64,000 nucleotides of DNA from a bacterium BMS3Bbin03 (GCA_002898015.1 BDTM01000035.1:42401-106400); one strand, 5' to 3'. Shown: positions 26,599 to 50,281, counted from the first letter of the stretch. Notes: generated from the sequence alone by a model not told the origin. Translations and numbers: made by a program.

Positions 26599-26687
26599 AT
26601 CCCCTGTCCCGGGAGCGGTCATTCAGGATTTTTGAAGCGGATGAGCCTATTGTCAGAAATAATCTCATACAAAATTTTAAGGTCACT

Positions 26688-27979: not shown

Positions 27980-28007
27980 TTGACATTGGAAAAAAAAATC
28001 TTATATT
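27980..28007 (+). promoter_or_regulatory. Sigma70-like promoter, TTGACA-N16-TATATT
   Basis: TTGACATTGGAAAAAAAAATCTTATATT has a consensus -35 and a near-consensus -10. It lies about 240 nt upstream of the outer-membrane-receptor gene. Confidence 0.4.
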
Positions 28008-28179
28008 ATTAGTGAAATTAAGAAATTGTCATAAAATTACCTGCTCGATAGTATAAAGAAATCTTTAAGGTGACAGATCTTTCCGAAGTTTAAGCGTTCA
28101 ATTCTTGAGGGAATTTTTAAAGCAAATTCAATTGCCGGGGAACGGGGTTTTTTAGTTCATTGCTTTTCAGGAGGAGGTG

Positions 28180-28246: not shown

Positions 28247-31039
28247 ATGGGACTGCGTCGTATTTGTCCAATCGCTGGGGTTTTCCTGCTTTCTTTTCTG
28301 ATGTTGTATCCCCTGTTTTTATGGGCGGGAACCACCGGAAAAATTGCAGGATACGTCCGTGACAAAAGCAACAACCAGCCCTTACCGGGAGCCAATGTAA
28401 TCATTGTTGGCACGCAAATGGGGGCGGCCACGGATGCAAATGGTTATTTTTATATCATTAACATTCCGCCTGGTGTTTACAAAGTACAGGTCCGGATGAT
28501 TGGGTATGAAACGGTTTTGATGAAAAATGTTCGGGTGCAGGTTGATCGAACCACAAAAACCAATTTCTCTCTTCCGTCCACCGTTTTAAAATTGGGAAAA
28601 GAAATCGTGGTAACGGCGGAACGTCCTTTAATCGAACCGGATATCACAACCAAAACCAACACCATTTCTGCAGAAGAATTAAAGACGATGCCCGTGAGAG
28701 GCATCGCAGATATTATGACATTACAATCGGGTATCATGGAGGTCATGGGATCTTTCAACAAAGTTCCCGGATTTGATTCCCGCGGAATTGATGATGTGCA
28801 TGTGCGCGGCGGGCGGAACGGTGAAATTGCCTACATGATCGACGGGATGTATGTGGAGGATGCGATTTACGCCGGGATGGGCACGCTGCTCAATCGGGAA
28901 GCTATCCAGGAATTGACCATTATTACCGGGAATTTTAACGCGGAGTATGGTCAGGCCCAATCTTCGATCGTGAATATTGTGACAAAAGAAGGCGGCGCAC
29001 GGTATACCGGATTAATGGAAGCCAGTACCGGTGAAATTGCAGGAAAGCTTGGTTCCAAGCCGGATGACCTGCGTGATGCGCACCAATTAATCGGTTCGTT
29101 CGGCGGTCCCGTGCCGCTGATCAAGCGCATGAATTTCTTTCTTTCCGGAAGTCAATCGTTTAAACGCTACGCGGTTTATCAATTCGACAACATCGTTTAC
29201 GATCCGAAGAATCCGGATAAAAGCACCTGGTCTTACGGTGCCTATCGAAAGGCATTTGAATGGGATACCATCCCGGGGTGGCGCGCATTTGGATTTAACC
29301 ACACCTGGGATTTTTCCGGAAAACTCACTTACCGGTTTAATCCCAGCATGAAATTAATATTAACGAATCGTTTAACAGAACGTCTGTTTCGGAATTTCGA
29401 TTGGGCCTGGCAGTATGCGGAGGCGGGCCGGCACGTGGTGAAGGATAGAACGGATCAACAGGGCCTGATCTGGACGCACCAGCTCAGTTCGTCCACATTT
29501 TATAATATTCGCGCCAGCCGTTTCTGGAAAGGGCGGACCTTTCGGGTGCACGGCATCAATAATCACGAATTGACGCCCGGGCATGCGGACAAGCTGATTG
29601 AACTGGGTGCCACAAGAGACTCAAGAGGATTTGGACCTCAGGAATACCCCACACGGGCCACAGTAGGGGGCTTTTATACGCCCATGAAATTTGTGCGTTT
29701 TGACACCCTAACGGACGGAGAGATTCGTCAGGTTTACACCGGAAGTGCCACACAATACTGGACACGCACCTATCAACAAACCTATGAATATTCATTATCA
29801 CTCACCAGCCAGATTCAGCGTCATCACCAGATTAAAACGGGTGTCGAGTACAAGACCTATGATCTGTATTTTCTTGAATTTCAATATCCGTGGATTCCAA
29901 ATCCCTACTCCGAATATTATATGAACCATCCGGAGGAAGGAAGCTGGTACCTCCAGGATAAAATGGAATACGAAAACCTGATTATAAATGCCGGCATACG
30001 CTTTGATTATGCCAATTCAAAAGGGTCTATGTGGGAAGACCCGACAAACCCGGGCAGTCCGGTGGTGACCGGGAAAAAGAAATATCAGTGGTCGCCCCGG
30101 CTCGGAATCGGGCATCCCATTACGGACAAAGCCACATTCCATTTTGCTTACGGGCAATTTTTTCAGGTGCCTGAATATCGGAACCTGTACACCAATAACG
30201 ACCGCGATCTCTCCACGCCCCGGCCTTTGTTTGGAAATCCCAATCTGAAGGCACAGCGAACCATTGCGTACGAAGTTGGCATTCGTCAGCAAATCGGACA
30301 AAATTGGGCGGTTGACATCACGGCCTGGTCAAAAGAAAGCAGTGAGTTGACGGGGACCATTAACGTAACCGGTTTTGACCCGCACGGCATCGGTTTGTAC
30401 GATTATTATGTGATGGTAAACCATGATTACGGAAGTTCTCGCGGATTGGATATCAGCATCCAAAAGCGTTACAGCAATTATTTTCGCGGGCAGCTTAACT
30501 ACACCTATTCGGTGGCAAAAGGCAATCAGCGGTATTCGTGGTCAGGATACTGGAACAGTGTCACGGATGAAACCGAACCCAAGAAGGAATACCTGATGCC
30601 CTGGGATCAGCCGCACACACTGGATGCCAACGTTTCGATCATCTTCCCGCGGTATTTCGGCCCGAAAGTCTGGAAATTTAAACCGTTATCCGAGTTTTAT
30701 ATGAATTTTATTGTGCGGCTCCACAGCGGGTATCCGTATACTCCGAGTTCCGGCGGTCAATCGTTAGAGCCGAACTCGGGAAGGCGCCCCTGGTTCTTCT
30801 CGATCGATACGATGATTCGCAAAGATATCCGGATTTTGGGGAATACAAAAATAGCCTTGTTTTCCAGAATTTACAACTTAACGGATCGAAAAAACCCCAT
30901 TTACGTGTATTCAGAGACGGGAAGTCCAACGGATCCGGGGCCTTACGCCAGTAAAACAGCTACTTCGACCTATTACGACAGACCGCATTATTTTGGCCCA
31001 AGGCGGACTATCGACTTTGGTTTGCAGTTTTTATTTTAA
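28247..31039 (+). CDS. TonB-dependent-receptor-like outer-membrane beta-barrel with an N-terminal carboxypeptidase-regulatory-like domain
   Basis: 930 aa with a signal peptide. The CarbopepD_reg-like fold is GKIAGYVRDKSNNQPLPGANVIIVG...DANGYFYIINIPPGVYKV. A plug-like region and a long Tyr/Gly-rich amphipathic barrel follow. The protein ends in a terminal Phe (GLQFLF). Confidence 0.65.
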   Translation: MGLRRICPIAGVFLLSFLMLYPLFLWAGTTGKIAGYVRDKSNNQPLPGANVIIVGTQMGAATDANGYFYIINIPPGVYKVQVRMIGYETVLMKNVRVQVDRTTKTNFSLPSTVLKLGKEIVVTAERPLIEPDITTKTNTISAEELKTMPVRGIADIMTLQSGIMEVMGSFNKVPGFDSRGIDDVHVRGGRNGEIAYMIDGMYVEDAIYAGMGTLLNREAIQELTIITGNFNAEYGQAQSSIVNIVTKEGGARYTGLMEASTGEIAGKLGSKPDDLRDAHQLIGSFGGPVPLIKRMNFFLSGSQSFKRYAVYQFDNIVYDPKNPDKSTWSYGAYRKAFEWDTIPGWRAFGFNHTWDFSGKLTYRFNPSMKLILTNRLTERLFRNFDWAWQYAEAGRHVVKDRTDQQGLIWTHQLSSSTFYNIRASRFWKGRTFRVHGINNHELTPGHADKLIELGATRDSRGFGPQEYPTRATVGGFYTPMKFVRFDTLTDGEIRQVYTGSATQYWTRTYQQTYEYSLSLTSQIQRHHQIKTGVEYKTYDLYFLEFQYPWIPNPYSEYYMNHPEEGSWYLQDKMEYENLIINAGIRFDYANSKGSMWEDPTNPGSPVVTGKKKYQWSPRLGIGHPITDKATFHFAYGQFFQVPEYRNLYTNNDRDLSTPRPLFGNPNLKAQRTIAYEVGIRQQIGQNWAVDITAWSKESSELTGTINVTGFDPHGIGLYDYYVMVNHDYGSSRGLDISIQKRYSNYFRGQLNYTYSVAKGNQRYSWSGYWNSVTDETEPKKEYLMPWDQPHTLDANVSIIFPRYFGPKVWKFKPLSEFYMNFIVRLHSGYPYTPSSGGQSLEPNSGRRPWFFSIDTMIRKDIRILGNTKIALFSRIYNLTDRKNPIYVYSETGSPTDPGPYASKTATSTYYDRPHYFGPRRTIDFGLQFLF

Positions 31040-31106
31040 GCTGAATCATTTGTGGTGTCAATTAAGGATTTTAATTGTAGCTGTTGTGAATGATGGAGGT
31101 CTTGTA

Positions 31107-34100
31107 ATGAATATCAAACAAAAAACGCTTTTTATATTGATACTTGGGCTTGCAATCGGCTTTTGGGGGCTGCAGTTTTCAAGCCTTGCGGCAGATAAAA
31201 AATCGGCCAAAAACAGCTATCTTAAGAAACCCCAAAGAAATATCGATTTTGCAGCGGGAATTTTGGATGCCGGTAAATTACAAAATGCTGTTTTTAATGA
31301 CGGGCGATTGGCCACATGGGCGTACCGGCCCTCCGTACCGGCCGCTTTTTACAAGGGTTGGTCCTATATTCCCGATTTAAGTATGATCATTGGTATCCCG
31401 GAGGATTCCAGTTGGACCCCTAAAAAACTGGATCCGGTCACAAATAAAATGATCAGTATGGGACCCACTGTTTCAGAGAGATTTGTGGCCAGTGACTGGG
31501 GCCCCAGTGCGGGAGCGAATGGAAAGTTACATTCCGGAGATGCCACCGTCGGCGATGTTCTGACCGGAACCAGCATAGGCGCTGTTCCGCTGATGGCCAC
31601 GAGCACGATTAAAAAAAGCTGGCCCAAAGATGACAGCGGCAACCGGTTCTGGCCGGGACCCTGGGCAGTAGACCCAATAACGGGAAAGGTTTTAAAAGGG
31701 CATTTTACCTCGGACAAAGACATCTTTTTCAGCATCACCGATTATGATGTCAATGACCAGGATGTTCCCTATGCGGATTCGGATAACGACACCCTGCAGG
31801 GGTACCCCATCGGGCTGAAATTGGATATCTCCGGCTATTCATACGGCCGGTCCTACGCAGAAGACATCTTATTCTTTCCGATGAAAATCATTAACACAAG
31901 CAAAAATAATTATCATGGGATGTATGTTGGCTTTTATATGGATGCCGACATCCCGGAGTACAACTTAAAAACGACCGTTAACGACCGTATGGACTGGATG
32001 AGTTTCATTAAGGATGAATATGATCCTGAAACGGATTCCACCTATCATTACAATATGGCGTACATTTACGACTACCGCTGGGGCACCGGGGATTTTAGCG
32101 GTGTATCCGATCCGGATGCCTGGAAAGTGTATGCCAGCATGAAATTGCTGGACACACCCGTTAACCCCAAAACCGGAGAACAACTGGGAATCACGGATTG
32201 GCACTGGTTCCAATGGGAGAACCGCCCGGGGATCATTGATTCCAAACGGCAGGAACTGATTCAATATAAAGTCATCAGCGGCGATACATCCGGATTGACC
32301 CCGGAAGAAAGCGATGCCTATTTCTGGCCCGATCCTTCCGGTCATCTGGATCCGCATTTTGATTCGCCCGAAGGCATTCGAACGATGTATCCGGATGGAT
32401 TGGACTGCGTGTTTATCATGAGTTCGGGGCCTTTTGACCTGGCCGCCGGGGATACGGCCGTGTTTTCATTTGCCATGATTATGGGAGATAATTTAAAAGA
32501 TCTTAAATTTAATGCCCGTACCGCCCAGTTTATGTATAATTTGCACTATCAGGGTGCCAATCCGCCGATAGCCCCACACGTCACGGCAGTTCCCGGAAAA
32601 GGGCGAATAACCCTTTATTGGGATCGCGTGGCGGAATCTTCTATCGATATTATGACGGGATACCAGGATTTTGAAGGGTATCGAATTTACCGCACGACGA
32701 GTAATCCCGTCAACAATGAATGGGGTACCGAAATTCGAAATGATCTGGGAAACGTGGTTGAGTTTGTGCCGGTCGCCCAATTTGACTTAGCTGACGGGAT
32801 CAAAGGTCCCGATCCTCAGAACCCTTATTTCAATCTGGGGAATGACACAGGCTTGAAACACTCCTGGACAGATTCCACCGTTTTGGACGGCGTGACCTAC
32901 TGGTATGCCGTCGCCCCTTATGATCGCGGTGTTCGTCCCGAAACCGAATTCAATCCGGATCATTGGCCCCTGCTGGCAGCCCTTGAAACCGCAAAAGGCA
33001 CAAACCCGGATGCGACACCGAATTTGGTGGAGGTTGTGCCCGGTCCAAAGCCTTCCACATATGTGCCGCCGGAGATTGTCCTGAAACCGAAGCCCGGAAC
33101 TCTCGGAAATGGAAAAATCAAAGCTTCGATCATCGATCCGGTGGCCATTACCGGACATACTTATGAAATCAGTTTTGATGATACAACCACGCGTGGAAAA
33201 CTTCTTTACAACGTCTGGGATGCGACCGATCAGGCATGGGCTCTAAAAGGAGCCGATGAAACCCGGGGGCAGGAAGGGCCGTTCTTTGACGGTTTGCAGC
33301 TTTTGATTGATAATTATCAATCAATCGGACTATTGGCGGATTCCTCGGGGTGGACCACCGCGACAGGCGATTCAACGGATGTGACATGGACTTATTCGGC
33401 GACCGGTTTTAGTAATCCGCACAATTATGAAATTCGATTCACGGATGAAGGAGATACGAGTGTGTTCATGCCTCCGCTGATAAGAGTGCCCTTCGAGGTC
33501 TGGGATGTGACCGTCGATCAAAAATTGGATTTTATCAGTTTTGCGGCGAGTACGGACACAACGCCGGAGATGAAAAATACCTGGACAAGCGGCGATGCGT
33601 TTATGATTCGTGAAAAAGTGAGGGGCCGGGTGCGAAGTACCTTCAGCTTTAAATTGGAAGGGATTCCGGATACCGTCATCACAACAATCGATACGACGAT
33701 TAATGGGGCGGACACGACAATTGTGGACACGACCATTACACCCAAAATACCCCCGAAAACGGGTGACGTGCTGCACCTGATCACGACAAAACCGTTTAAA
33801 CGCGACCGTGATGTTTTTGTGCTTGAAACTTCCCATTACAAACTCGAAAAAAGGATTCAGCAAAAAGAATTAAAAATGGTTCGGGTGGTGCCCAATCCTT
33901 ACATTGTTTCGGCAGAATGGGATTTAAATCCGTACATCCGGCATATTCAGTTTCGGAATTTGCCGAACGAGTGTGTGATTCGTATTTTCACATTAACAGG
34001 AGACAAGGTTAAAACGATTCATCACAAGAACGCGACGCAGGGATGGGAATTCTGGAATATGCAGACGTATAACGGGCAGGAAATCGCGTATGGCTTGTAT

Positions 34101-34163
34101 TTATACATAATTGAAACGCCGGACGGCAAGACGCAAATGGGTAAATTTGCGGTTATTAAATAG
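31107..34163 (+). CDS. Large secreted protein with a variant T9SS-type C-terminal beta-sandwich, candidate PorU-like from synteny
   Basis: About 1018 aa. The signal peptide is MNIKQKTLFILILGLAIGFWGLQFSSLAA. The C-terminus (VVPNPY...NLPNECVIRIFTLTGDKV...GLYLYIIETPDGKTQMGKFAVIK) resembles a Por CTD. It sits immediately upstream of the PorV-like gene. GGAGGT lies 6 nt before the ATG. Confidence 0.5.
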   Translation: MNIKQKTLFILILGLAIGFWGLQFSSLAADKKSAKNSYLKKPQRNIDFAAGILDAGKLQNAVFNDGRLATWAYRPSVPAAFYKGWSYIPDLSMIIGIPEDSSWTPKKLDPVTNKMISMGPTVSERFVASDWGPSAGANGKLHSGDATVGDVLTGTSIGAVPLMATSTIKKSWPKDDSGNRFWPGPWAVDPITGKVLKGHFTSDKDIFFSITDYDVNDQDVPYADSDNDTLQGYPIGLKLDISGYSYGRSYAEDILFFPMKIINTSKNNYHGMYVGFYMDADIPEYNLKTTVNDRMDWMSFIKDEYDPETDSTYHYNMAYIYDYRWGTGDFSGVSDPDAWKVYASMKLLDTPVNPKTGEQLGITDWHWFQWENRPGIIDSKRQELIQYKVISGDTSGLTPEESDAYFWPDPSGHLDPHFDSPEGIRTMYPDGLDCVFIMSSGPFDLAAGDTAVFSFAMIMGDNLKDLKFNARTAQFMYNLHYQGANPPIAPHVTAVPGKGRITLYWDRVAESSIDIMTGYQDFEGYRIYRTTSNPVNNEWGTEIRNDLGNVVEFVPVAQFDLADGIKGPDPQNPYFNLGNDTGLKHSWTDSTVLDGVTYWYAVAPYDRGVRPETEFNPDHWPLLAALETAKGTNPDATPNLVEVVPGPKPSTYVPPEIVLKPKPGTLGNGKIKASIIDPVAITGHTYEISFDDTTTRGKLLYNVWDATDQAWALKGADETRGQEGPFFDGLQLLIDNYQSIGLLADSSGWTTATGDSTDVTWTYSATGFSNPHNYEIRFTDEGDTSVFMPPLIRVPFEVWDVTVDQKLDFISFAASTDTTPEMKNTWTSGDAFMIREKVRGRVRSTFSFKLEGIPDTVITTIDTTINGADTTIVDTTITPKIPPKTGDVLHLITTKPFKRDRDVFVLETSHYKLEKRIQQKELKMVRVVPNPYIVSAEWDLNPYIRHIQFRNLPNECVIRIFTLTGDKVKTIHHKNATQGWEFWNMQTYNGQEIAYGLYLYIIETPDGKTQMGKFAVIK

Positions 34164-34200
34164 ACACAAAACTGCCATTAAATTTTTCGGAGGAAAATCA

Positions 34201-35223
34201 ATGAAACGCGTGATTTTAACGATGACTCTGATTTTGGGCCTGTTCTGGAATCTGGCGCAGGCACAGGAAATGAGCCGCGTGGCCACTGCCAGCGCCCAGT
34301 TTTTAAAATTCGGTGTGGGTGCACGTGCCCTGGCTCTTGGCAGCGCTTATGTGGCTTTTGAAAATGATCCGTTTTCACTCTATTGGAATCCCGCCGGTAT
34401 CGCCTCCATACAGGGTACGGCTGTGGCTGTTTCCAGGAGTAATTATTATGGCGGCATATCGCACAACTTTTTTGGAACCGTTCTGGGTCTGGCGGAAGGC
34501 GCTTTAGGCCTGAGTGTGACTTACATGGGTACAAATGAAATTGAAGTGACTACGCTTTCTTCGCCCGACGGAACCGGAACCTATTACGATGTCAGCGGTA
34601 TGAGCGTCGGATTGACGTATGCCCGAAATATTACCAACGTTTTAAAAATGGGAATCACGGCGAAACTGGTTCGGGAGCGTATTTACCGGGAAACGGCTAA
34701 CGCACTTGCAGTTGATTTCGGCTCCATCATCAACACCGGATTGGGAGGCGTCAAACTGGCCATGTCACTGACGAATCTTGGGCAATCCATGCAATTGCGG
34801 GGTCCCGATTTGCGCGTCTCGCACGACCGGTATCCCAATAATCCTGCAGAGGCGAACGTAAAAGCGGATTTATTTACGGACAAATGGCCGCTGCCGATGG
34901 TGTACACCATTGGCATCAGGACAGATATCGTGGGGGGTGATGGAATGAATATTCCCAGCCAGGTGCATCGATTGACCGTTGCATTTTCCGCCAATGATGC
35001 CTGGGATGCGGTTTTAAGAGCCAATTACGGACTGGAATATGAATGGCGAAACTTGTTCTCCATCCGAGCGGGTTTCATGCAAAAGTACGATACAGCCCGT
35101 TTTACACTTGGCGGCGGCGTGAGGTATCAATTGGGACGTACAACGATGCTGCTTGACTATGCGTATGTAAATTACAGTTATTTGGGCAGTACCAATCATT
35201 TTTCTCTGGAATTTCACTATTAA
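34201..35223 (+). CDS. porV: PorV/LptO-like outer-membrane protein (T9SS shuttle, FadL-like barrel)
   Basis: It has a signal peptide and the N-terminal motif SAQFLKFGVGARALALGSAYVAFENDPFSLYWNPAGIA, which matches the conserved PorV N-terminal box (FL.I..GARA..MG.A....D..S..WNPAG). The barrel is Gly/Tyr-rich and ends in an aromatic residue. Confidence 0.6.
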   Translation: MKRVILTMTLILGLFWNLAQAQEMSRVATASAQFLKFGVGARALALGSAYVAFENDPFSLYWNPAGIASIQGTAVAVSRSNYYGGISHNFFGTVLGLAEGALGLSVTYMGTNEIEVTTLSSPDGTGTYYDVSGMSVGLTYARNITNVLKMGITAKLVRERIYRETANALAVDFGSIINTGLGGVKLAMSLTNLGQSMQLRGPDLRVSHDRYPNNPAEANVKADLFTDKWPLPMVYTIGIRTDIVGGDGMNIPSQVHRLTVAFSANDAWDAVLRANYGLEYEWRNLFSIRAGFMQKYDTARFTLGGGVRYQLGRTTMLLDYAYVNYSYLGSTNHFSLEFHY

Positions 35224-35264
35224 ATTGCTTATATTACTTTGTGTTAATTTCTTATAGTCCCCTG

Positions 35265-35407
35265 AAAGGAGGTGAGGTAGCCCAACCCATTTGAATGAAT
35301 CCTATCTTATGAAATCGCGAAAGGAGGTGATATAGCAGTTGTATCGGATGCTGAATTCGATGAAAAAGTTGCGATTTAATCAAAAGCATGAAGGAGGATT
35401 AAAATGA
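35265..35407 (+). promoter_or_regulatory. 5' leader with repeated AAAGGAGGTGA (perfect anti-Shine-Dalgarno complement) motifs and overlapping mini-uORFs
   Basis: AAAGGAGGTGA occurs at 35265-35275 and 35330-35340, and GAAGGAGGA at 35390. A 19-codon uORF (35348..35407, MLNSMKKLRFNQKHEGGLK) ends in ATGA, overlapping the main ATG at 35404. Confidence 0.5.
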
Positions 35408-37542: not shown

Positions 37543-37584
37543 TTTAGACTTCATAAGAAGAAAATTGCATGTGTTTAACGAATG

Positions 37585-37623
37585 GCAGAGGATGGGAAAC
37601 CGTCCTCTGCTGCTTATTTTTTG
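37585..37623 (+). terminator. Rho-independent terminator
   Basis: The GCAGAGGA / TCCTCTGC stem is 8 bp with a 10-nt loop, followed by TGCTTATTTTTTG. Confidence 0.6.
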
Positions 37624-37823
37624 TTTATTATCAATCCGTAAAGGATGCGGTTACGGTGTCGCCGGCTTCATATCTGCGTTTTTACAGGTTCCGAGCGTTC
37701 TTGCAAAATACGTTTGCCGAAATAGTGGTCTATCCGGTGCGTTGCCGTCCTTCCCAGAAAAACTTTTCATCACCAGCAAATTGGTAATCTTGCGTTTATA
37801 TTAAATGAATATTTAAGGAGGCT

Positions 37824-40800
37824 ATGAAACGGATGAGACGAACAATTTATTTTTTGCTTGTTATGGGCATCGTGTTTTCAAGTGCCATTTTAAAAGCCGA
37901 GAGACCTGTAAAAAGCCAAAAATACCTGTTTGATGGAAGAGGGTACGTTCAACCTCACAAAGTGCTTTTAAAAGTAAAAACTTTTGCTTCCCTGAGGATG
38001 AAAGGGATTACTTTTTACAAGCCGGCATCTATAACCGGCCTGGCGTCGGTCGATCGGGTATTGGAAAAGTTTGAAGTAAAGTCCGTTAAAAAATATTTGC
38101 AGCACAAGCCCATTCCTGCCGGAATACCCGATGATATTGACCGGATTTATGAAGCACGATACGCCTCAGATGCACCGCCGTGGGAAGTGGCAAAGGAACT
38201 GGCAAAAGATCCGAATCTGGCGTATGCGGAACCCGTGCCGGTGTTTTTTTTAGAGGATACACCCAATGATCCCATGTATTCTCAACAGGCTCATCTGCCT
38301 CAAATTCATGCGCCCGAAGCCTGGGGTGTTCAAAAGGGCGACAGTTCTGTGGTTATTGCCATCGTCGATTGTGGCGTGGATTACAAGCATGAAGATTTAG
38401 CGGCAAATTCCTGGATTAATGAAAAGGAAAAAAATGGTCTGCCGGGAGTTGATGATGATGGAAACGGCTACGTGGACGATATTTATGGGTGGGATTTTGG
38501 CGAAAACGATCCGAATCCGATAAATCCCCCTCCGGATCCGCTCGGTTATTATGCCCACGGTACCCATGTGGCGGGATTGGCGGCGGCCGTCACAAACAAT
38601 GGTGTGGGGGTTTCGGGATCAAGCTGGAACTGCCGGTATATGGCGGTTAAAGCGGCTAAAGATGATGACCCGCGGTCCATTACGAATGGGTATCAGGGGA
38701 TCACGTATGCGGCAGATAACGGCGCCGATGTCATCAATCTGAGCTGGGGCGGCGGCGGTTATTACCAGGCCGGTCAGGATGTGGTGGAATATGCGTACAA
38801 CAAGGGATCCCTTGTTGTGGCTTCTGCCGGAAATGATCCAAATGATAAAGTGCATTACCCGTCCGGCTATCGCTATGCACTGAGCGTGGGTGTGGTTGAT
38901 TCTCACGATCGCAAACCGGCCTGGGGTACCTGGGGTCTTTCCGTAGATGTGATGGCGCCGGGCGTTCAGGATTTATCGACTCTGCCGGGAAACAAATACG
39001 GCAGGATGTCGGGCAGCTCCATGTCTGCCCCCGTGGCTGCCGGAGTGGTCGCTCTTGTGAAAGCCCGGCATCCGACTTGGTCTGTGCAGCGCATTATGAA
39101 ACAGGTTGCTTTTACCGCCGATAATATCGACGCCGAAAATCCGGGTGTCGAAGGATTGCTTGGCGGGGGAAGAATCGATGCCTATCGTGCTGTAACGGAG
39201 ACAAACCCCACACCTTCGCCCCCTAAAATAAAACTGATCAGCACGAAGATTTCCGATTCGGATTATGGGAACGGCAATGGGGTATTCGAACAGGGTGAAA
39301 CGATTACGATTGAACCTAAATTCCATAATTACTCCATGGGGACAGGAACAAATGTTCAGTTCTCTCTGAACACAGGTGACGATTCCAGCATTGTACTGAT
39401 TGCCAAATCAAGTACCGTCTCTTTTGTGGATGAGGAATCTGTTTTTGGTTTGCCGGAGAAGTTTTCTTTTTTAATAAAACAAAATGCGCAGTCTCACATG
39501 ACGCGATTTTTCATCGGATACACGACGAGCGAAGGATTCACGAGAGCGGATAGTTTCGATGTCTTGATCGGCAAGACTCCTGTCCTTATTGTTGATGACG
39601 ATGACGGCCAGAATAATGTTCAGGGGTTCTACATTTCGAGTTTAAAAACATTGGGCGTGAATTACGGAATCTGGACTCATGTAACGATGGGAACGCCTTC
39701 CAGCAGCTATCTTTCGAGTTTTCCGATTGTAATCTGGTCTTGCGAATGGGCCTTTCCGTCATTGGACTCCAGTGACCGGGCGGTATTACAAAAATATCTG
39801 GACGGCGGCGGGAACCTGTTTATTTCGGGGCAGGATATTGGTTGGGATTTGGTCGATCCCACAAGCGACGATCATAATGCTTCAAGCGAACAATTCTTTA
39901 AAGATTATCTGCATGCGGAATATGATGCAGATAATGCGAATGATAAGCGGGTCCGGGGTGTTTTCGGAGATCCCATCGGCAATGGCTTAAATTTTGAAAT
40001 TAACCAGCCGGGGCGGGATATTACAAATCAGTATCCCGATGTTCTGAGCCCTCTCCCCGGTGCGTTCCCCGTGTGGCAGTATGAGATAAATGGGGGTTAC
40101 GGAGGTGTGCGATTTGCCGGAGATTACCGGGTGGTTTATTTTGGTTTCGGTTTTGAAGCCATTGATGCGCCTACCGCCATCACCCAGGCGGGCGAGTATT
40201 CAAAAAATCGCGTGACCGTGATGCGAAGAGTGCTCGATTATCTTAATCCTATTCAGATGACGCCTTTAAAAGATTCGGAAAATATGGAAATTACATTTCC
40301 TGTGAATGCGATTCTGAAGGGTGATACGGTTGATCTGAAGGGAATGGTGCTTTATTGGAAATTTAAAGATGATTCCGTGTTCCGGGCCGTCCCAATGAGT
40401 CGTCAGGACCGTTTGTTCAAGGCCACGATCCCGGCCGCGCATCGCACAACGCATATTGATTATTATCTGGAAGTGGAGAATCAATATTATAAATGGAGTG
40501 CCCCGCCGGGAGCACCCCGTAACTATTATCAATTTTTTGTAGGACCGGACACGATTCCTCCCGTAATTGTTCATGAAAATCTTCCGGACATGTTTAATGG
40601 TGAAAAACCGTATTCCGTTCATGTCAAAGTGACCGATAATATCAGTCTGGATATGAATTCGGTTTTTGTTCACTATAAAGTCCGTTCCGTTGAGGACAGC
40701 CTTCAGCTCAGCCCCGGGGCGGAAACCGGTCTGTTTAAAGGGTCGATCCCGCCGGTGGCCGCTTATGGGGATACGCTTGTGTATTGGTTTACGGCAAAGG

Positions 40801-41639
40801 ATCGATCTTTGTTAAAAAACAGAGCCGTGTCTCAAAAATATCGTTTTCTTGTGGGATTGGACAACTTTGAACGGGGGTTATCCGGCTGGGTTGTTAACCC
40901 GCCCGGGTGGGGGCTGGACAATACGAATGCGCACTCCGGGGAATTTTCCATAAACGACAGTCCGGGTAAAAATTACGGTTTGAATGAAGTCACCATCATC
41001 CAAACGGATTTTGGATTCGATTTTTCCAGGGCCAAAAAAGCAATGCTGAGCCTGTGGACGAAATATTATCTTGAATTTGGTCATGATTTTGGTTATATTG
41101 AGGTTAGTCCGGATGGTGGGTCCACATGGAAACAATTGGGTGAAAAAATCGGCGGTGTTTCAACCCGGTGGAAAGAAATCACGCGTTCACTCACGCCTTA
41201 CACCGGAGCCGGTTTCGATCAGGTCAAACTGAGATTTCGAATGGTTTCGGACAATCATCAGGGTCCCCCCTTTATGGGCTGGTATATCGATGACGTTCAA
41301 GTCATAGAAGGTAAAGATCTAACAAGCGTCGCGTCAAACTCAAATGAAAATACGATCCCTAAAAGCTGGGAAGTATCTCAAAATTATCCAAATCCTTTTA
41401 ATCCTGAAACTCGAATTTCTATCCGGGTGCCCGGAAAACAGCTCGTAAGAATCGATGTCTATAATAGTATTGGGCAGCATGTGATCACCCTTGTCAAAAA
41501 AGTTTTACCTGCGGGGAATTATCAGTTTAATTGGAAAGGTGTGAACCCAAAAGGGGAAGAAATGCCGTCCGGACTCTATTTTTTAAGGGTCAGAGGTAAA
41601 AAATTTACAAAAATTCAAAAAATGGTTCTCATGCGCTAA
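37824..41639 (+). CDS. Subtilisin-like serine peptidase (S8) with large accessory domains and a T9SS C-terminal sorting domain
   Basis: 1271 aa. The catalytic triad is in context: Asp in VIAIVDCGVDYKHEDL, His in HGTHVAGLAA, Ser in GSSMSAPVAAGVVALV. The C-terminal CTD is NYPNPFNPETRISIRV...GLYFLRVRGKKFTKIQKMVLMR. Confidence 0.8.
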   Translation: MKRMRRTIYFLLVMGIVFSSAILKAERPVKSQKYLFDGRGYVQPHKVLLKVKTFASLRMKGITFYKPASITGLASVDRVLEKFEVKSVKKYLQHKPIPAGIPDDIDRIYEARYASDAPPWEVAKELAKDPNLAYAEPVPVFFLEDTPNDPMYSQQAHLPQIHAPEAWGVQKGDSSVVIAIVDCGVDYKHEDLAANSWINEKEKNGLPGVDDDGNGYVDDIYGWDFGENDPNPINPPPDPLGYYAHGTHVAGLAAAVTNNGVGVSGSSWNCRYMAVKAAKDDDPRSITNGYQGITYAADNGADVINLSWGGGGYYQAGQDVVEYAYNKGSLVVASAGNDPNDKVHYPSGYRYALSVGVVDSHDRKPAWGTWGLSVDVMAPGVQDLSTLPGNKYGRMSGSSMSAPVAAGVVALVKARHPTWSVQRIMKQVAFTADNIDAENPGVEGLLGGGRIDAYRAVTETNPTPSPPKIKLISTKISDSDYGNGNGVFEQGETITIEPKFHNYSMGTGTNVQFSLNTGDDSSIVLIAKSSTVSFVDEESVFGLPEKFSFLIKQNAQSHMTRFFIGYTTSEGFTRADSFDVLIGKTPVLIVDDDDGQNNVQGFYISSLKTLGVNYGIWTHVTMGTPSSSYLSSFPIVIWSCEWAFPSLDSSDRAVLQKYLDGGGNLFISGQDIGWDLVDPTSDDHNASSEQFFKDYLHAEYDADNANDKRVRGVFGDPIGNGLNFEINQPGRDITNQYPDVLSPLPGAFPVWQYEINGGYGGVRFAGDYRVVYFGFGFEAIDAPTAITQAGEYSKNRVTVMRRVLDYLNPIQMTPLKDSENMEITFPVNAILKGDTVDLKGMVLYWKFKDDSVFRAVPMSRQDRLFKATIPAAHRTTHIDYYLEVENQYYKWSAPPGAPRNYYQFFVGPDTIPPVIVHENLPDMFNGEKPYSVHVKVTDNISLDMNSVFVHYKVRSVEDSLQLSPGAETGLFKGSIPPVAAYGDTLVYWFTAKDRSLLKNRAVSQKYRFLVGLDNFERGLSGWVVNPPGWGLDNTNAHSGEFSINDSPGKNYGLNEVTIIQTDFGFDFSRAKKAMLSLWTKYYLEFGHDFGYIEVSPDGGSTWKQLGEKIGGVSTRWKEITRSLTPYTGAGFDQVKLRFRMVSDNHQGPPFMGWYIDDVQVIEGKDLTSVASNSNENTIPKSWEVSQNYPNPFNPETRISIRVPGKQLVRIDVYNSIGQHVITLVKKVLPAGNYQFNWKGVNPKGEEMPSGLYFLRVRGKKFTKIQKMVLMR

Positions 41640-41656
41640 TACCGAAAAAGGAGGTG

Positions 41657-41779
41657 ATGAGATTTTTATCCGAAAAATATTATTTACAAAAAGGAGGTGA
41701 GGCGAACAAAAAAATCCTTGTTGCGGATGAAAAAACCAGTCATGGATTAAAATTTATCGACTGGCAAATCGTAAAATAA
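41657..41779 (+). CDS. 40-codon small ORF in the cargo-gene leader (MRFLSEKYYLQKGGEANKKILVADEKTSHGLKFIDWQIVK); speculative
   Basis: It starts 2 nt after AAAGGAGGTG and contains a second AAAGGAGGTGA internally. It ends 27 nt before the next cargo gene. Confidence 0.2.
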   Translation: MRFLSEKYYLQKGGEANKKILVADEKTSHGLKFIDWQIVK

Positions 41780-41806
41780 TTTCAAACCAAAATGGAGGGT
41801 AACAAC

Positions 41807-44800
41807 ATGAGTAAAAGGTTGTTTTTATTTGCCACTGCGGTCATGTTGGCTGTATTTGGTGTGTTTGCGGTTTATGCTTCGAATAGTCCCCAAAAGTCGG
41901 TTGTGACAAGCAAGGTTAAAACCGTTCAGAAAAAGAAATTTCAAATGATTCGTTCTAACGGAACTGAAGCGGCCACGGCTGCCACACCATTATTCTTCGA
42001 TGATTTTGAAGGCACTAATCCCACATGGTGGCCCGATGCAAGCTGGAACAACACGGGTGATCCCGATCCCAATACCGGGCGCCAGTTTTCGAGAAAATCG
42101 ACGTGGGAATACACCGACTCATCGTATAGCAGCCCCACGCATAGCTGGCATAATTTGGTCAATGCCAATCAGGATCTGGACTTCTTGTTCTCACCTGTGT
42201 TTCACGTACCGGATTCGGTGACGATTGACGGGATTACCAGTGTACTAAAGGGCGGCTTTATCCAGTTTATGGCCAAAAAAGGCGGCAAAGGCATACTGAA
42301 TGTTTTTGTGAGCGCAGCCACTCCCCTTTGGGAAGTTGTATCCGATGATCCTCACAGCGGAGCCAATAATTATAATATGACTCAACCCAGTAACCCGATG
42401 CTGCATCAGTGGTTAATTTCTCCGAAAATTGATTTAACCGGAAAAACGGCGCCCAAACTGGATTTCTGGCACAATTATATTTCCGAAGACAAGTGGGATT
42501 ATCTGGCTGTAGATGTGTCTACCGACAGTTTTGCCACTTATACGAATCTGGCGTATTATACGGGCGAACAGGATGCCTATACAGAAGTAAATCTGGATTT
42601 GTCGGCTTTCGCCGGCGAGCAAATCTGGTTCCGTTTCCGCTACGTAGCCGATTATGGAGCAACAGCAGATAACGCGCATTGGGATGTGGATGACATTCTG
42701 GTTGCCGATGGCACCGATACGGTATTCTTTTCCGGTGCAGAAACTGAACCTGACCCCTTTACAAAGGCCGGGTTCATGGGCGGTACATCTGTTGCGGCAT
42801 TTAATACCGAACAGGATTGGGGCCTTGTCGATTTGGGTAATGTCCTTCTGAAAGGCGTTAAACCGGGTGTGGATGCGCGTTTGGCGTTTCAATGGACTAC
42901 TTCAGGAGACACCACGTTAACCGGCGCAGGCATCTATGTGGATGATGTCTCCGTTATTCCAATGGGAATGCAGCATGTCGATTTAGAAGCTGTTGGCGCC
43001 GCCGGCTTAAACAACGCTGCCCTTGGCAGACCGCTTAATGCAAAAGTTGTGGTTGCCAATGCGGGTCTCGATACGTTAAGCGGCCGTATTTCATGGCTGG
43101 CAAAAGTCTTTAAAAATGTAACTCCCGACAGCAGTGCTCTTGTCGGCAATATGGTTGGTTTTCAGCAAGTCAGTGGTTTCACTCCCGATTCAGTTATCTA
43201 TATTCCAACGCTGCAAAACACACGTTGGGTTCCAAAAGAACCGGGTGATTACACATTGGATGTGGATGTCATTTTCAATGGTGACACTTACATGTCCAAT
43301 AATAATGTGAAGGTAGATTTCACCGTACTCGGGCCTCCTTTTGCCATTCCGGTCTATCGTGAAGATTTCGAGCCCAGAGCCGGCCAGACGTCCTTAGCAG
43401 ATTTCGGGTGGACGGTTGACAATGGCGGCGGCGGTTCACACACTTGGGTTTATGATACCTGGATATATGGCTGGGGTCCGGTCATATCAGGATATTTTTA
43501 CGATTGGACGGCTGATTCTGCCAGTGCGGCACAGGCATTAGATGAAACGCTGACCAGTCCTGAAATTGACATTTCTAAGGTCAATTCGCATAATGTCCTG
43601 TTTTTGAACTGTTATATCTATTTCCGGCCCGGCCACGCCGGTCTGGGAGCCCCCTGGGGTGCGCAACCCAGCGATATGACGATTCAATATTCCGTAGACG
43701 GCGGCGCCTGGCAGCAAGCATTCTACTGGGCTGATAACGATACACTGCCCGGAGATTACAATCGTTGGCCGCAGACCCGGTTGGGTGTGCCGTATTATCA
43801 CAAAACCGACATGGTGCTTCCCGGAGCAGCCGGTGGAAAAACACTCCAGATCCGCGTCAACTTCACTTCTACGAACTCGTATCTCTTTGGCATCAACTTC
43901 GATGAGGTCATCATTTACCAGGGTCTGATTAATCCATTGTTAGGCAAGGTGAAAGATGTGCCCAACGATAATGGTAAACAAGTCCGCTTGAATTGGATGA
44001 GATCCTGGAACGATCTGATGACCGCTAAGGGTGAAGGTTTGCAGAATCCGGTGACGCATTACAATGTCTGGAGAGGCTTTGGAATCCCGGGCGCGGGAGA
44101 AGCCAGACATGTGACTTCAACGGAAGCCATGCTGCGTGGTGCTGCCGGCATGAAAATTGGTGACAAAGTCATCGTCGATGACAACAACATGCTGTGGGAA
44201 CTGGTGGGCTCTGTTCCGGCAATGGGATGGAAATTCTATTCCTACGTCGCTCCGACCCTTGAGGATTCTGTCAGCACCTCATTCATGGTTTCTGCTCATC
44301 TGACCAATCCGATGGTATTCGATTACTCAAATATCAGTGCAGGCATATCCATCGATAATCTGGCGCCGCACATACCGGGTGGACTGACGGGTGGTCAGGT
44401 AGATTCCCATGTAAAAATCGTCTGGCAGCCGGTAACCGATAATGACCTGATGTTCTATACGGTTTATCGCAGCCAGGGAAATGGTAATTTGGTGCGATTG
44501 ACAAGAACAACGAGCACCTCTTATGTAGATGCGAATGTCACTCTGGAGAAGACTTATCATTATGCCATTACCGCCACCGATTTTGGGTGGAATGAGAGTC
44601 AAAAATCGGAAAAACTGTCGGTTTCCGTGACCAGTGTGAATGAAAAAGTTTCTAATGCAATCCCGACGGATTACGCATTGAATCAAAATTATCCGAATCC
44701 ATTCAATCCGACCACGGAAATTCGCTACGCGATTCCAAAGAGTGCAAATGTGACCATTTCAATTTATAACGTATTTGGTCAGAAAGTACGCACGCTGGTA

Positions 44801-44944
44801 ACCGGATACAAGTCTGCCGGCTATTATGTGGCAAACTGGAATGGCCGTTCCGATAATGGTCGCGAAGTCTCTTCCGGTATTTATTTCTATGAAATTCATG
44901 CCGGTACATTTACGGCCACAAAGAAGATGACTTTAATGCGGTAA
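41807..44944 (+). CDS. Secreted protein with an FN3 domain and a T9SS C-terminal sorting domain
   Basis: There is a GGAGGG site 6 nt before ATG 41807, and a signal peptide. The FN3-like module is VKIVWQPVTDNDLMFYTVYRSQGNGNLVRLTRTTSTSYVD. The C-terminal CTD is NYPNPFNPTTEIRYAI...GIYFYEIHAGTFTATKKMTLMR. Confidence 0.65.
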   Translation: MSKRLFLFATAVMLAVFGVFAVYASNSPQKSVVTSKVKTVQKKKFQMIRSNGTEAATAATPLFFDDFEGTNPTWWPDASWNNTGDPDPNTGRQFSRKSTWEYTDSSYSSPTHSWHNLVNANQDLDFLFSPVFHVPDSVTIDGITSVLKGGFIQFMAKKGGKGILNVFVSAATPLWEVVSDDPHSGANNYNMTQPSNPMLHQWLISPKIDLTGKTAPKLDFWHNYISEDKWDYLAVDVSTDSFATYTNLAYYTGEQDAYTEVNLDLSAFAGEQIWFRFRYVADYGATADNAHWDVDDILVADGTDTVFFSGAETEPDPFTKAGFMGGTSVAAFNTEQDWGLVDLGNVLLKGVKPGVDARLAFQWTTSGDTTLTGAGIYVDDVSVIPMGMQHVDLEAVGAAGLNNAALGRPLNAKVVVANAGLDTLSGRISWLAKVFKNVTPDSSALVGNMVGFQQVSGFTPDSVIYIPTLQNTRWVPKEPGDYTLDVDVIFNGDTYMSNNNVKVDFTVLGPPFAIPVYREDFEPRAGQTSLADFGWTVDNGGGGSHTWVYDTWIYGWGPVISGYFYDWTADSASAAQALDETLTSPEIDISKVNSHNVLFLNCYIYFRPGHAGLGAPWGAQPSDMTIQYSVDGGAWQQAFYWADNDTLPGDYNRWPQTRLGVPYYHKTDMVLPGAAGGKTLQIRVNFTSTNSYLFGINFDEVIIYQGLINPLLGKVKDVPNDNGKQVRLNWMRSWNDLMTAKGEGLQNPVTHYNVWRGFGIPGAGEARHVTSTEAMLRGAAGMKIGDKVIVDDNNMLWELVGSVPAMGWKFYSYVAPTLEDSVSTSFMVSAHLTNPMVFDYSNISAGISIDNLAPHIPGGLTGGQVDSHVKIVWQPVTDNDLMFYTVYRSQGNGNLVRLTRTTSTSYVDANVTLEKTYHYAITATDFGWNESQKSEKLSVSVTSVNEKVSNAIPTDYALNQNYPNPFNPTTEIRYAIPKSANVTISIYNVFGQKVRTLVTGYKSAGYYVANWNGRSDNGREVSSGIYFYEIHAGTFTATKKMTLMR

Positions 44945-44962
44945 TTTGTTCCTGTTCAAAAA

Positions 44963-44994
44963 GCCATCCGGGATTTCCCGGGTGGCTTTTTTAT
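44963..44994 (+). terminator. Rho-independent terminator
   Basis: GCCATCCGGGATTTCCCGGGTGGC forms a 10-bp stem with one G-U wobble, followed by TTTTTTATATTTTTT. Confidence 0.75.
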
Positions 44995-50262: not shown

Positions 50263-50281
50263 TTATAATACCCTGCCTCAT

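Follow-up and report, generated by a model that had tools for sequence, protein, structure and literature searches.

Between positions 28,247 and 44,944 of a 64,000-nt stretch of DNA from bacterium BMS3Bbin03 (GCA_002898015.1, BDTM01000035.1:42401-106400; hereafter, the window), a gene for a TonB-dependent transporter (TBDT) is followed by genes for a large secreted protein (X), an outer-membrane barrel and three proteins with type IX secretion system (T9SS) C-terminal domains (CTDs). In the original prediction, X (31107..34163) was read as a PorU-like sortase and the product of 34201..35223 as the organism's PorV.

Organization of the Locus

The ORFs of the transporter, X, the barrel and the three CTD cargo proteins were all found on the plus strand, with the coordinates that they had originally been given. 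The features of the locus are as follows.

27980..28009, plus strand: promoter-like site, TTGACA, spacer of 16–18 nt, TATATT/TATTAT (11/12 consensus matches; consensus match only)
28247..31039, plus strand: TonB-dependent transporter, 930 aa (Pfam matches and sequence motifs)
31107..34163, plus strand: protein X, secreted, all-beta, 1018 aa (signal peptide, HMM, AlphaFold model)
31239..32561, plus strand: N-terminal domain of X, galactose-mutarotase-like supersandwich, 440 aa (fold of the model)
33879..34160, plus strand: variant CTD of X, VVPNPY...NLP..C.I.IFTL.G..V...H...W...GLYLY...GKFAVIK, a class apart from the cargo CTDs
34201..35223, plus strand: divergent PorV/PorQ-family outer-membrane barrel, 340 aa (sequence models only)
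35404..37542, plus strand: 712-aa protein whose one recognised domain is a canonical type A CTD (TIGR04183, 37.3 bits)
37583..37612, plus strand: hairpin resembling an intrinsic terminator, with 13 pairs and then a T run, after the gene for the 712-aa protein
37824..41639, plus strand: 1271-aa subtilase of the S8 family that also carries a MAM-like domain and ends in a type A CTD (Peptidase_S8, 161.5 bits; TIGR04183, 33.6 bits)
41792..44944, plus strand: 1050-aa protein with InhA-like MAM, choice-of-anchor J and type A CTD (TIGR04183, 40.7 bits)
44958..44991, plus strand: strong terminator-like hairpin, 15 pairs, at the end of the cargo genes

The genes of the triad (TBDT, X and barrel) show operon-like spacing, with gaps of 67 nt (TBDT/X) and 37 nt (X/barrel). 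The promoter-like site, the strong one upstream of the operon, lies within a 476-nt AT-rich gap 5′ of the transporter gene, and the first strong terminator-like site downstream of it lies 3′ of the fourth gene. Since no strong terminator-like site (13–15 bp stem) occurs between the 712-aa gene and the three genes upstream, this gene is probably the last of the operon. A single operon at 28247..37542 with a conserved core of three genes is the best explanation of the layout. Furthermore, Shine-Dalgarno sites of the GGAGG type stand in front of six of the seven island genes, and a core of at least 4 nt was found for 17 of 31 genes across the window, in agreement with the strong Shine-Dalgarno use claimed earlier.

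The three cargo proteins, one of them an S8 subtilase, were recovered as predicted: all pass the TIGR04183 cutoff of 23 bits, and the 712-aa protein scores 117.8 bits against the cargo-tail HMM. CTDs had also been proposed for an LTD protein and an M1 peptidase elsewhere in the window. The tail of the former passes CHU_C at 33.8 bits; that of the latter scores 22.9 bits, under the Pfam cutoff, and 53 bits against the lineage-specific cargo-tail HMM, and both proposals hold. Related genes accompany the triad in other genomes. In two Marinimicrobia loci, an S8-CTD gene similar to the one here (33% identity over 519 aa) is located 4–5 kb 3′ of the triad. A protein with the domain architecture of the 1050-aa protein is encoded directly 3′ of the barrel gene in Marinimicrobia loci; the two have only the CTD and weak MAM similarity in common, which is a likeness of architecture rather than demonstrated orthology.

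Judging by sequence models, the island is T9SS-related, since it encodes a PorV/PorQ-family barrel and at least three cargo proteins with canonical type A CTDs. Core T9SS genes (SprA/Sov, PorK/L/M/N = GldK-N and PorU) were not found within approximately 85 kb of the contig (the window and approximately 10 kb on each side). Indirect support for a T9SS in the BMS3Bbin03 genome is limited to a near-canonical PorV and many CTD proteins. T9SSs in non-Bacteroidota FCB phyla have already been discussed (PMC11285876; PMC11205867), so this part of the original case is not new.

The TonB-Dependent Transporter

Based on Pfam, the product of 28247..31039 is, as had been suggested, a TonB-dependent-receptor-like protein with a CarbopepD_reg N-terminus: it matched CarbopepD_reg_2 (71.8 bits), Plug (31.1 bits, cutoff 23.9) and TonB_dep_Rec_b-barrel (78.5 bits, cutoff 27). 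Its parts follow the order signal peptide, CarboxypepD_reg N-terminal extension, TonB box, plug, 22-strand-type barrel and C-terminal Phe (...LQFLF), the TonB-box-like EIVVTA being located at aa 119–124 (nt 28601–28618). The Oar and SusC classes have their domains in the same order. The plug, barrel domain, TonB box and C-terminal aromatic residue identify it as a TBDT, and on sequence grounds it has all the parts of an energised importer. It falls well short of the SusC/RagA subfamily model TIGR04056, scoring 53.1 bits (aa 32–228 only; cutoff 368), and it matched no solved TBDT barrel in a phmmer search.

TBDTs built in this way are also able to export protein, Oar from Myxococcus xanthus being an example (PMC6434023). 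It could be imagined that the transporter works outwards in the same way, with X or the neighbouring proteases being exported by TonB power and collected by the PorV-like barrel. The transporter shares the domain order of Oar (CarboxypepD_reg extension, plug with TonB box, barrel), and protease genes adjoin it in the window. However, only one case of Oar-type export is known, it comes from an organism without T9SS, and the protein exported by Oar has no CTD (PMC6434023), whereas the cargo proteins here carry standard T9SS type A CTDs and a near-canonical PorV is encoded on the contig, which indicates the ordinary T9SS route. We consider outward transport very improbable.

Protein X

The expected secreted protein of about 1018 aa with a variant CTD-like end was confirmed: X has a signal peptide (aa 1–29) with no lipobox Cys, and its CTD-like tail scores below the cutoffs. 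In the AlphaFold model (pLDDT 82.6), X is all-beta, helices being few, and is made up of a supersandwich (aa ~45–485), an FN3 domain (aa ~490–610), further beta-sandwiches and the variant CTD (aa ~925–1018). Pfam gave no match for the body of X, even with the threshold relaxed to E ≤ 10, and the X family is unannotated, with neither a Pfam nor an NCBIfam model for the body.

The reading of X as PorU relied on its position, that is, on a large CTD-bearing gene directly 5′ of a PorV-family gene, as is porU in Bacteroidota; this resemblance is positional only. A conserved His and a conserved Cys are also present in X. However, no C25 domain was found by Pfam, by NCBIfam or in the fold: X scored 13.8 bits with the PorU model NF033707, whose cutoff is 420, the match covering the last 85 aa alone, and no peptidase, gingipain or PorU chain was among the listed structural matches of X. 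The two residues in which a gingipain-like dyad could be sought, His366 and Cys434, lie in strands of the beta-sandwich N-domain and not in a C25 fold. As X is without a C25 domain, the PorU claim is refuted. In addition, the barrel is far short of the cutoff for the PorV equivalog, and the product of a nearby gene is a much better PorV. The reading of this gene pair as PorU and PorV, already refuted for family membership, retains next to no probability. Overall, the original interpretation is partly supported, and the observation behind it is partly confirmed.

His366 (nt 32202–32204), Arg373 (nt 32223–32225) and Cys434 (nt 32406–32408) of the N-domain are conserved in 70 of 95 members of the X family. 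The three are kept jointly in canonical members and lost in divergent paralogues. This conserved set hints at catalysis over simple binding. The modelled fold of the domain is of a carbohydrate-binding type. The N-domain also occurs in stand-alone proteins at 48–57% identity, with unrelated C-terminal halves. A T9SS CTD-type Pfam domain is present in three of the four full-length ones, and both whose contigs were looked up sit away from any transporter or barrel. A substrate-directed module accords with this distribution better than a machine part does.

The tail of X is below every curated cutoff (CHU_C, 21.6 bits; Por_Secre_tail, 12.8 bits with a cutoff of 27), and X does not qualify as type A CTD cargo by TIGR04183 / PF18962. 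Tails of the X class score approximately 155 bits against their own HMM and approximately 16 bits across classes, in a comparison with cargo CTDs of the same genomes; the X tail is thus a conserved class distinct from these cargo CTDs. It matches the CTD part of the PorZ model (E 7e-4) and has the CTDs of PorZ and PorU as its closest relatives according to profile models and structure comparison. PorU and PorZ are themselves T9SS substrates whose CTDs are retained for barrel binding, that of PorU staying on PorV and that of PorZ on PorQ, and cognate PorV-like barrels may shield a CTD from cleavage (PMC10202324).

The PorV/PorQ-Family Barrel

The product of 34201..35223 passes the PorV/PorQ subfamily model NF033709 over its full length (166.6 bits, cutoff 90) and Pfam PF19572 (28.8 bits, cutoff 27), and among solved structures its best relative is PorV from F. 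johnsoniae (6h3i_F, E 2.9e-9). No FadL/OmpP1 model or chain was in the result lists (Pfam, NCBIfam, PDB), which places it, by sequence, in the PorV/PorQ family and not with FadL/OmpP1. The barrel remains under the equivalog cutoffs for PorV (NF033710, 57.1 bits in the N-terminal half only, cutoff 250), PorQ (NF033711, 70.2 bits, cutoff 220) and PorV2 (NF052325, 74.5 bits, cutoff 325). A second gene of this kind was found on the same contig, 6.4–7.4 kb past the window end. Its product scores 235 bits on the PorV equivalog (cutoff 250) over the full length and matches 6h3i_F with E 5.5e-40; the two barrels share 23% identity. Hence, the family assignment of the original prediction stands, but the barrel is not the best PorV of the genome. 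With a near-canonical PorV elsewhere on the contig, the barrel next to X is an extra, specialised, divergent paralogue, and we propose that it serves X as a cognate anchor or shuttle.

Conservation of the Triad

Of 63 loci that could be tested for it, 56 have a TBDT homologue directly 5′ of an X homologue; for a barrel homologue directly 3′, the count is 51 of 56 testable loci. The loci are labelled KSB1, Calditrichota, Fidelibacterota/Neomarinimicrobiota (Marinimicrobia), Zhuqueibacterota and WOR-3, and the order TBDT-X-barrel was seen directly in contigs of Caldithrix abyssi and Marinimicrobia.

It is conceivable that these genes are co-located without forming a complex, X being a surface enzyme or adhesin with its own shuttle and the transporter importing something unrelated. 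T9SS cargo genes often cluster, the flanking cargo genes vary between lineages, and paralogous X arrays without an adjacent barrel or transporter exist (L021, L024 and L025). Nevertheless, gene order and short gaps are kept over at least three named phyla at protein identities down to 31–36%, so neutral co-location is unlikely, and we regard this explanation as quite improbable.

Most genomes seem to carry one canonical triad, in contrast to the many paralogous pairs of SusC/SusD systems; this single-copy pattern would also be in keeping with a role in housekeeping or in the machinery. In six Marinimicrobia loci, weaker tblastn matches to X and the barrel lie a few kb 5′ of the triad. In L045, the one locus examined in detail, they represent an adjacent X′-barrel′ gene pair, and the triad is flanked by genes for a regulator of the Lrp/AsnC family and for an S8 protease that bears a CTD. 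The Lrp/AsnC family recurs in nine loci, L045 not among them.

Comparison with Known Systems

The pair of X and its barrel is similar to PorZ-PorQ and PorU-PorV of the Porphyromonas gingivalis attachment complex, where a large surface protein is combined with a PorV/PorQ-family barrel; in both partners, the tail of X and the subfamily match of the barrel, the likeness extends to the sequence. It differs in the body of X, with a supersandwich, FN3 and beta-sandwiches in place of the C25 domain of PorU or the twin beta-propellers of PorZ; in the failure of the barrel at the PorV, PorQ and PorV2 equivalog cutoffs; and in the presence of a TBDT gene in the operon. We know of no report of PorU, PorV, PorZ or PorQ in an operon with a TonB-dependent transporter.

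This similarity raises the possibility that X and the barrel are T9SS machinery themselves and correspond, outside Bacteroidota, to the attachment complex. X would then either carry glycan or LPS in the manner of PorZ, seated on a barrel like PorQ, or process CTDs as an enzyme without C25 that uses the conserved His/Cys. Besides the affinity of the X tail, there is the score of the barrel, which is slightly better with the PorQ model than with the PorV model (70 vs. 57 bits here; 112 vs. 83 bits in L045), and the extra X′-barrel′ pair, together with that of the triad, recalls PorU-PorV plus PorZ-PorQ. The triad is usually single-copy, widely conserved and always found amid CTD cargo genes; His366, Arg373 and Cys434 go together, kept in canonical members and missing from divergent paralogues, and a carbohydrate-binding-type fold could bind LPS glycan. 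However, this explanation leaves no role for the tightly linked transporter (56 of the 63 loci), and the occurrence of the N-domain in ordinary stand-alone cargo with cleavable-type CTDs is unexpected for a dedicated component. We regard a machinery role as rather unlikely.

The SusC/SusD and RagA/RagB systems of Bacteroidota are similar in that a TBDT with a carboxypeptidase-regulatory-like extension adjoins the gene of a surface-exposed partner, with secreted hydrolase genes in the same locus. SusD is an alpha-helical lipoprotein, whereas X is all-beta and carries a CTD; X has no lipobox Cys and no SusD Pfam match, nor is it a TPR-like protein. The transporter scores 53 bits on the SusC/RagA model against the cutoff of 368, the triad has a third gene, for the PorV-like barrel, and most genomes have one copy and not dozens. 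We propose that the likeness of X to SusD is functional only.

In Flavobacterium johnsoniae, genetically linked pairs of type B CTD cargo and PorP/SprF shuttle have been demonstrated, the barrel setting both secretion and final location of the cargo (PMC12618676). Here too, a non-standard CTD is encoded beside its own specialised barrel. The barrel, however, is of the PorV/PorQ and not the PorP/SprF family, the X tail does not count as a type B CTD under any of the curated cutoffs, and no transporter is involved in the F. johnsoniae pairs.

A structural precedent for the proposed arrangement of transporter, barrel and X is BamA-BamG-BamH of the Bacteroidota BAM, in which a 14-strand FadL/PorV-like barrel packs on a larger barrel and holds a surface protein via extracellular loops (PMC12578637). 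That complex differs in its function, outer-membrane protein assembly, and in its surface partner, which is a lipoprotein and not a CTD protein.

Proposed Role of the Triad

Based on gene order and the fold of X, we suggest the following pathway. The first step would be the passage of X through the inner membrane via the Sec pathway. Then, the T9SS would recognise the CTD of X and export the protein. The CTD would be left uncleaved and bound to the cognate barrel encoded by the neighbouring gene, as the CTD of PorZ is on PorQ and that of PorU on PorV, so that X would be held at the cell surface beside the transporter and in contact with both. There, it may capture or trim a substrate for TonB-powered import, the conserved working part being the 440-aa galactose-mutarotase-like supersandwich. 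The co-encoded CTD hydrolases (the S8 protease and the MAM-domain protein) would generate this substrate; the fold of X suggests glycans and the neighbouring genes suggest proteins. X would thus do the job of the SusD/RagB lipoprotein of Bacteroidota, without being related to it.

We estimate the probability that X is exported by the T9SS, tethered via its uncleaved CTD to the cognate barrel and acts as the surface capture partner of the adjacent transporter at roughly 40%. The broader proposal, that the triad is an unrecognised outer-membrane complex of non-Bacteroidota FCB phyla in which a T9SS-exported, CTD-tethered partner replaces the SusC/SusD-type lipoprotein, is put forward somewhat more tentatively. 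If true, the type IX secretion apparatus would be directly coupled to nutrient import, and a function would be assigned to the unannotated X family, which comprises about 300 clusters at 50% identity, including those of the abundant ocean Marinimicrobia.

Gene Content of the Island

The island comprises a triad of genes on the plus strand, encoding a TonB-dependent transporter (TBDT), a 1018-aa secreted protein (X) and a PorV/PorQ-family protein (the barrel), followed by genes for three proteins with a C-terminal signal domain (CTD) of type IX secretion (T9SS). The intergenic gaps within the triad are 67 and 37 nt, and six of the seven genes in the island have a GGAGG-type Shine-Dalgarno site upstream.

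Features of the island (window positions)
27980-28009: strong promoter-like site upstream of the triad, matching the consensus
28247..31039, plus strand: TBDT (Pfam CarbopepD_reg_2, 71.8 bits; Plug, 31.1; barrel, 78.5)
31107..34163, plus strand: X, with a signal peptide and no lipobox Cys
34201..35223, plus strand: barrel, above the PorV/PorQ subfamily cutoff (166.6 bits vs 90)
35404..37542, plus strand: fourth gene, 712-aa CTD protein, passes TIGR04183 (type A CTD)
37583-37612: first strong terminator-like hairpin, 3′ of the fourth gene
37824..41639, plus strand: S8 subtilase, passes TIGR04183 (type A CTD)
41792..44944, plus strand: 1050-aa CTD protein, passes TIGR04183 (type A CTD)

The TBDT carries a TonB-box-like EIVVTA at residues 119-124 and ends in Phe. 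The original prediction had read the island as PorU-like and PorV genes next to a run of CTD cargo genes. Its observations were largely correct: the transporter with a CarbopepD_reg N-terminus, the three canonical-CTD cargo genes including an S8 subtilase, the strong Shine-Dalgarno use and the variant CTD at the end of X all held. However, the PorU identity did not.

X Is Not PorU

X is 100% identical to the database entry BMS3Abin05_00110, a hypothetical protein of bacterium BMS3Abin05. Its AlphaFold2 model (mean pLDDT 82.6) is beta-strand nearly throughout, and no gingipain, caspase-like or PorU chain was among the listed Foldseek matches of this model to the PDB. A profile of X and 39 homologues (40 sequences) found no meaningful solved relative among all PDB sequences. 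Pfam had no match at E ≤ 10 to the N-terminal or middle part of X; the sole matches were sub-threshold ones to CTD models within the last ~100 residues. Since a C25-like catalytic domain is absent from this all-beta protein, X as PorU is ruled out.

The Barrel and a Second PorV on the Contig

The barrel was proposed to be PorV, and its membership of the PorV/PorQ family is confirmed: the closest solved relative is F. johnsoniae PorV (6h3i_F, E 2.9e-9), and neither FadL models nor FadL chains occur in its result lists. Nevertheless, it is below all equivalog cutoffs (PorV, 57.1 bits against 250; PorQ, 70.2 against 220; PorV2, 74.5 against 325). A second PorV-family gene was found on the same contig, in the stretch beyond the window end (L086), ~6.4-7.4 kb past position 64000. 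Its product matches the PorV equivalog (NF033710) over its full length with 235 bits against 250 and 6h3i_F at E 5.5e-40, and shares 23% identity with the barrel. Based on its low PorV equivalog score, the better PorV nearby and this low identity, the barrel is an extra, specialised paralogue and not the organism's PorV.

Genes around the second PorV (L086:2498-9865, ~6-14 kb past position 64000, window minus strand, in the order listed)
L086:2498-3556: near-canonical PorV
then: 1072-aa CTD protein (543 bits against 600 on the model "T9SS-dependent M6-like inactivated metalloprotease")
then: 992-aa Tricorn/TolB-like beta-propeller protein

No C25 PorU adjoins the near-canonical PorV within this region. 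SprA, PorK/L/M/N and a true PorU were likewise not found in the ~85 kb read (the window and ~10 kb on each side), and N-terminal motifs of GldM and GldL had no match in 1.47 Mb of fetched loci. Reviews extend the T9SS to FCB phyla other than Bacteroidota (PMC11285876; PMC11205867), and Por CTD proteins are known to abound in SAR406 genomes (PMC5596340).

Conservation of the Triad across Phyla

A total of 446 homologues of X were detected. Among the 120 listed, all are named "hypothetical protein" except three, which have a different architecture and generic domain labels; the listed homologues are labelled as KSB1, Fidelibacterota/Marinimicrobia, Calditrichia (including Caldithrix abyssi) and other FCB-group genomes. 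Contigs of Caldithrix abyssi and Marinimicrobia carry a CarboxypepD_reg-type TBDT, X and the barrel in the same order, flanked by Por_Secre_tail genes. No description of this operon or of the X family was found in open-access texts.

With one genome scanned for each GTDB species, 115 relatives were obtained, and 78 loci were fetched. Judging by record titles, these include about 20 from Fidelibacterota/Neomarinimicrobiota, 17 from Calditrichota, 7 from KSB1 and one each from Zhuqueibacterota and WOR-3, the remainder having generic or unreliable MAG labels. By tblastn, X is directly preceded by a TBDT homologue in 56 of 63 testable loci and directly followed by a barrel homologue in 51 of 56. 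That the three genes are merely co-located is a less likely explanation of this arrangement. Arrays in which X paralogues have diverged make up most of the exceptions to the gene order: four loci (L021, L024, L025 and L026; KSB1-grouped and one labelled Zhuqueibacterota) contain two or three such paralogues in tandem with no adjoining barrel. The genome of isolate SRP141376_co3_458 has three separate X loci.

The flanking genes mostly vary by lineage. In the Marinimicrobia locus L045, the row consists of a pair of X- and barrel-like genes (X′ and barrel′), an Lrp/AsnC regulator, a CTD protein, the triad, a CTD protein and a CTD-bearing S8 protease; BNR and InhA-like MAM domains are found in representatives of the CTD families that flank the triad. 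The X′-barrel′ pair (L045:18-4246) is a degenerate second copy ~6-10 kb upstream of the triad, and its X′ tail is PorZ-like (E 4.7e-9). In L037, L046, L048, L077 and L082, tblastn gave matches of lower strength to both X and the barrel at the same upstream position. The regulator between the two units of L045 belongs to a family that recurs in nine other loci.

The cargo genes were also considered as conserved orthologues, but clear cross-phylum similarity was found for the S8 protease only (33% identity between the window and Marinimicrobia proteins across 519 residues); the MAM-domain proteins have little in common beyond the CTD. A role in peptidoglycan scavenging was suggested by two other neighbours.

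Genes that prompted the peptidoglycan-scavenging idea
26595..27770, plus strand: LD-carboxypeptidase (Peptidase_S66, murein-peptide recycling), directly upstream of the transporter operon
L008:13712-15004, L009:14484-15812, L010:11839-13119, L011:17537-18865, L013:17409-18734: 441-aa Mur-ligase-family protein, 3′ of the barrel gene

Blastp of the fetched related loci found no homologue of the LD-carboxypeptidase, which does occur on contigs of the source organism itself, and the Mur-ligase-family gene occurs in these five loci only. This idea was dropped because neither gene recurs widely. The Mur-ligase-family protein has the middle and C-terminal domains only and is possibly FolC-like; its gene lies within ~220 nt of the barrel gene in two loci (L008, L009) and ~3.2-3.5 kb downstream of it in the other three (one locus labelled KSB1, four KSB1-grouped contigs).

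Two Classes of CTD and a Possible Third

Tail HMMs were built from the 105 C-terminal residues, one for X homologues and one for the cargo families that recur in their neighbourhood. The cargo-tail consensus is QNYPNPFNP...SGIYFY...KM.LLK, while that of the X tails is VVPNPY.V.A.WE...FTNLP..C.I.IFTL.GE.V...H...WDL...GLYVYVVETP.G.K.GKFAIIR. Cargo tails score a median of 127 bits on their own HMM and ~16 bits on the X HMM; X tails score a median of 155 bits on their own and ~17 bits on the cargo HMM. The 712-aa protein (118 bits), the S8 protease (93), the 1050-aa protein (114) and the M1 peptidase (53) of the window fall into the cargo class.

With curated models, the X tail has sub-threshold matches to the CTD parts of PorZ (E 7e-4) and PorU (E 8e-3), and with Pfam to CHU_C (21.6 bits) and Por_Secre_tail (12.8 bits), likewise sub-threshold. 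In a search of the complete PDB with the X-tail profile, the very C-terminal ends of PorZ (5m11) and PorU (6za2) ranked second and third, with non-significant E values of 0.17 and 0.46. PorZ, bound to PorQ, and PorU, bound to PorV, are the two T9SS proteins that retain their CTDs (PMC10202324). For type B CTDs, dedicated shuttle genes adjoining their cargo are established (PMC12618676).

Two further proteins of the window had been credited with CTDs. For the M1 aminopeptidase (57482..59494), the C-terminal ~70 residues fail the Pfam CTD model (22.9 bits vs a cutoff of 27) yet reach 53 bits on the lineage cargo-tail HMM; thus, standard CTD models under-call cargo in these phyla. The tail of the triple lamin-tail (LTD) protein (12062..14677) bears out the claim by passing the CHU_C (type B-like) cutoff at 33.8 bits. 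On the lineage cargo-tail HMM it also scores just 33.8 bits, and it may represent a third CTD class of this genome.

The N-Terminal Domain of X

The N-terminal domain (residues ~45-485) recurs at 48-57% identity in the homologues P0054, P0059, P0068 and P0109, which have other C-terminal halves (FG-GAP repeats, FN3) and mostly T9SS CTD-type Pfam domains. Two of them, P0054 and P0109, were looked up, and each is encoded by a stand-alone gene with neither a transporter nor a barrel next to it. The domain family comprises 312 clusters (50% identity, E ≤ 1e-3). Among 47 distant members, no known domain except CTDs is recurrently fused in a way that would reveal an activity; one member has an S8 domain and one SprB repeats.

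Conserved residues of X (plus strand)
32202-32204: His366
32223-32225: Arg373
32406-32408: Cys434

These residues are jointly kept in 70 of 95 aligned members, including stand-alone cargo versions. Nearly all remaining members, mainly divergent paralogues, lack Cys434 and Arg373, and the 13 Marinimicrobia X′-type sequences lack His366 as well. The pattern of conservation suggests a functional site, perhaps catalytic or metal-binding, in a fold otherwise known as non-catalytic.

The main rival explanation, which we consider improbable, is that X and the barrel are part of the T9SS attachment machinery. It would account for the X tail, the usual single-copy state and the conserved His/Cys pair, but it leaves the transporter unexplained and fits poorly with the stand-alone cargo paralogues.

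Other Genes of the Window

The gene at 15106..16188 encodes a BpsA-type C-terminal domain of branched-chain polyamine synthase (189 bits), an enzyme usually associated with thermophiles. At 16239..21880, genes for a GlnD-like protein (plus strand; HD and ACT domains) and a GlnE-like adenylyltransferase (minus strand) converge 2 nt apart. The 736-aa protein at 9907..12117 has a weak MG2 (alpha-2-macroglobulin-like) match as its sole domain, no NCBIfam match and, at the C-terminus, a hydrophobic segment and then RRRKGLL. One further run of genes is probably a cluster for surface polysaccharide or lipid modification.

Putative modification cluster
47454..53470, minus strand: three GT2 glycosyltransferases, a lysyl-phosphatidylglycerol-synthase-like membrane protein, a polysaccharide deacetylase and a radical SAM enzyme

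Proposed Role of the Triad

Two results weigh most: across phyla, a complete TBDT is linked with X and a private PorV/PorQ-like barrel, and X ends in a tail of its own class that resembles those of PorZ and PorU. Based on these, we suggest, with a probability of about 0.4, that X is a tethered partner of the transporter. X would be exported by the T9SS, its uncleaved CTD would keep it tethered to the adjacent barrel, and at the surface it would serve as a capture or trimming partner of the TBDT, a non-homologous functional counterpart of SusD/RagB. A structural precedent for a barrel holding a surface protein is BamA-BamG-BamH, in which a FadL/PorV-like barrel is packed on a larger barrel (PMC12578637). 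Oar-like outward transport through the TBDT (PMC6434023) is less likely.

For genome annotation, a porV-family gene with a large CTD gene upstream need not mean porU, and a PorV/PorQ-family match need not be the organism's own PorV. In oceans, sediments and hydrothermal systems, Marinimicrobia/Fidelibacterota, Calditrichota and KSB1 are abundant and degrade organic matter; most of them are uncultured, and CTD-tagged proteins are plentiful in their genomes. The partners of TBDTs in Bacteroidota are surface lipoproteins. A conserved operon in which a transporter is joined by an unannotated surface protein of ~1000 aa and its private PorV-like anchor offers a testable answer to what partners such transporters would have in other FCB phyla, with Caldithrix abyssi and Fidelibacter multiformis as cultured hosts.
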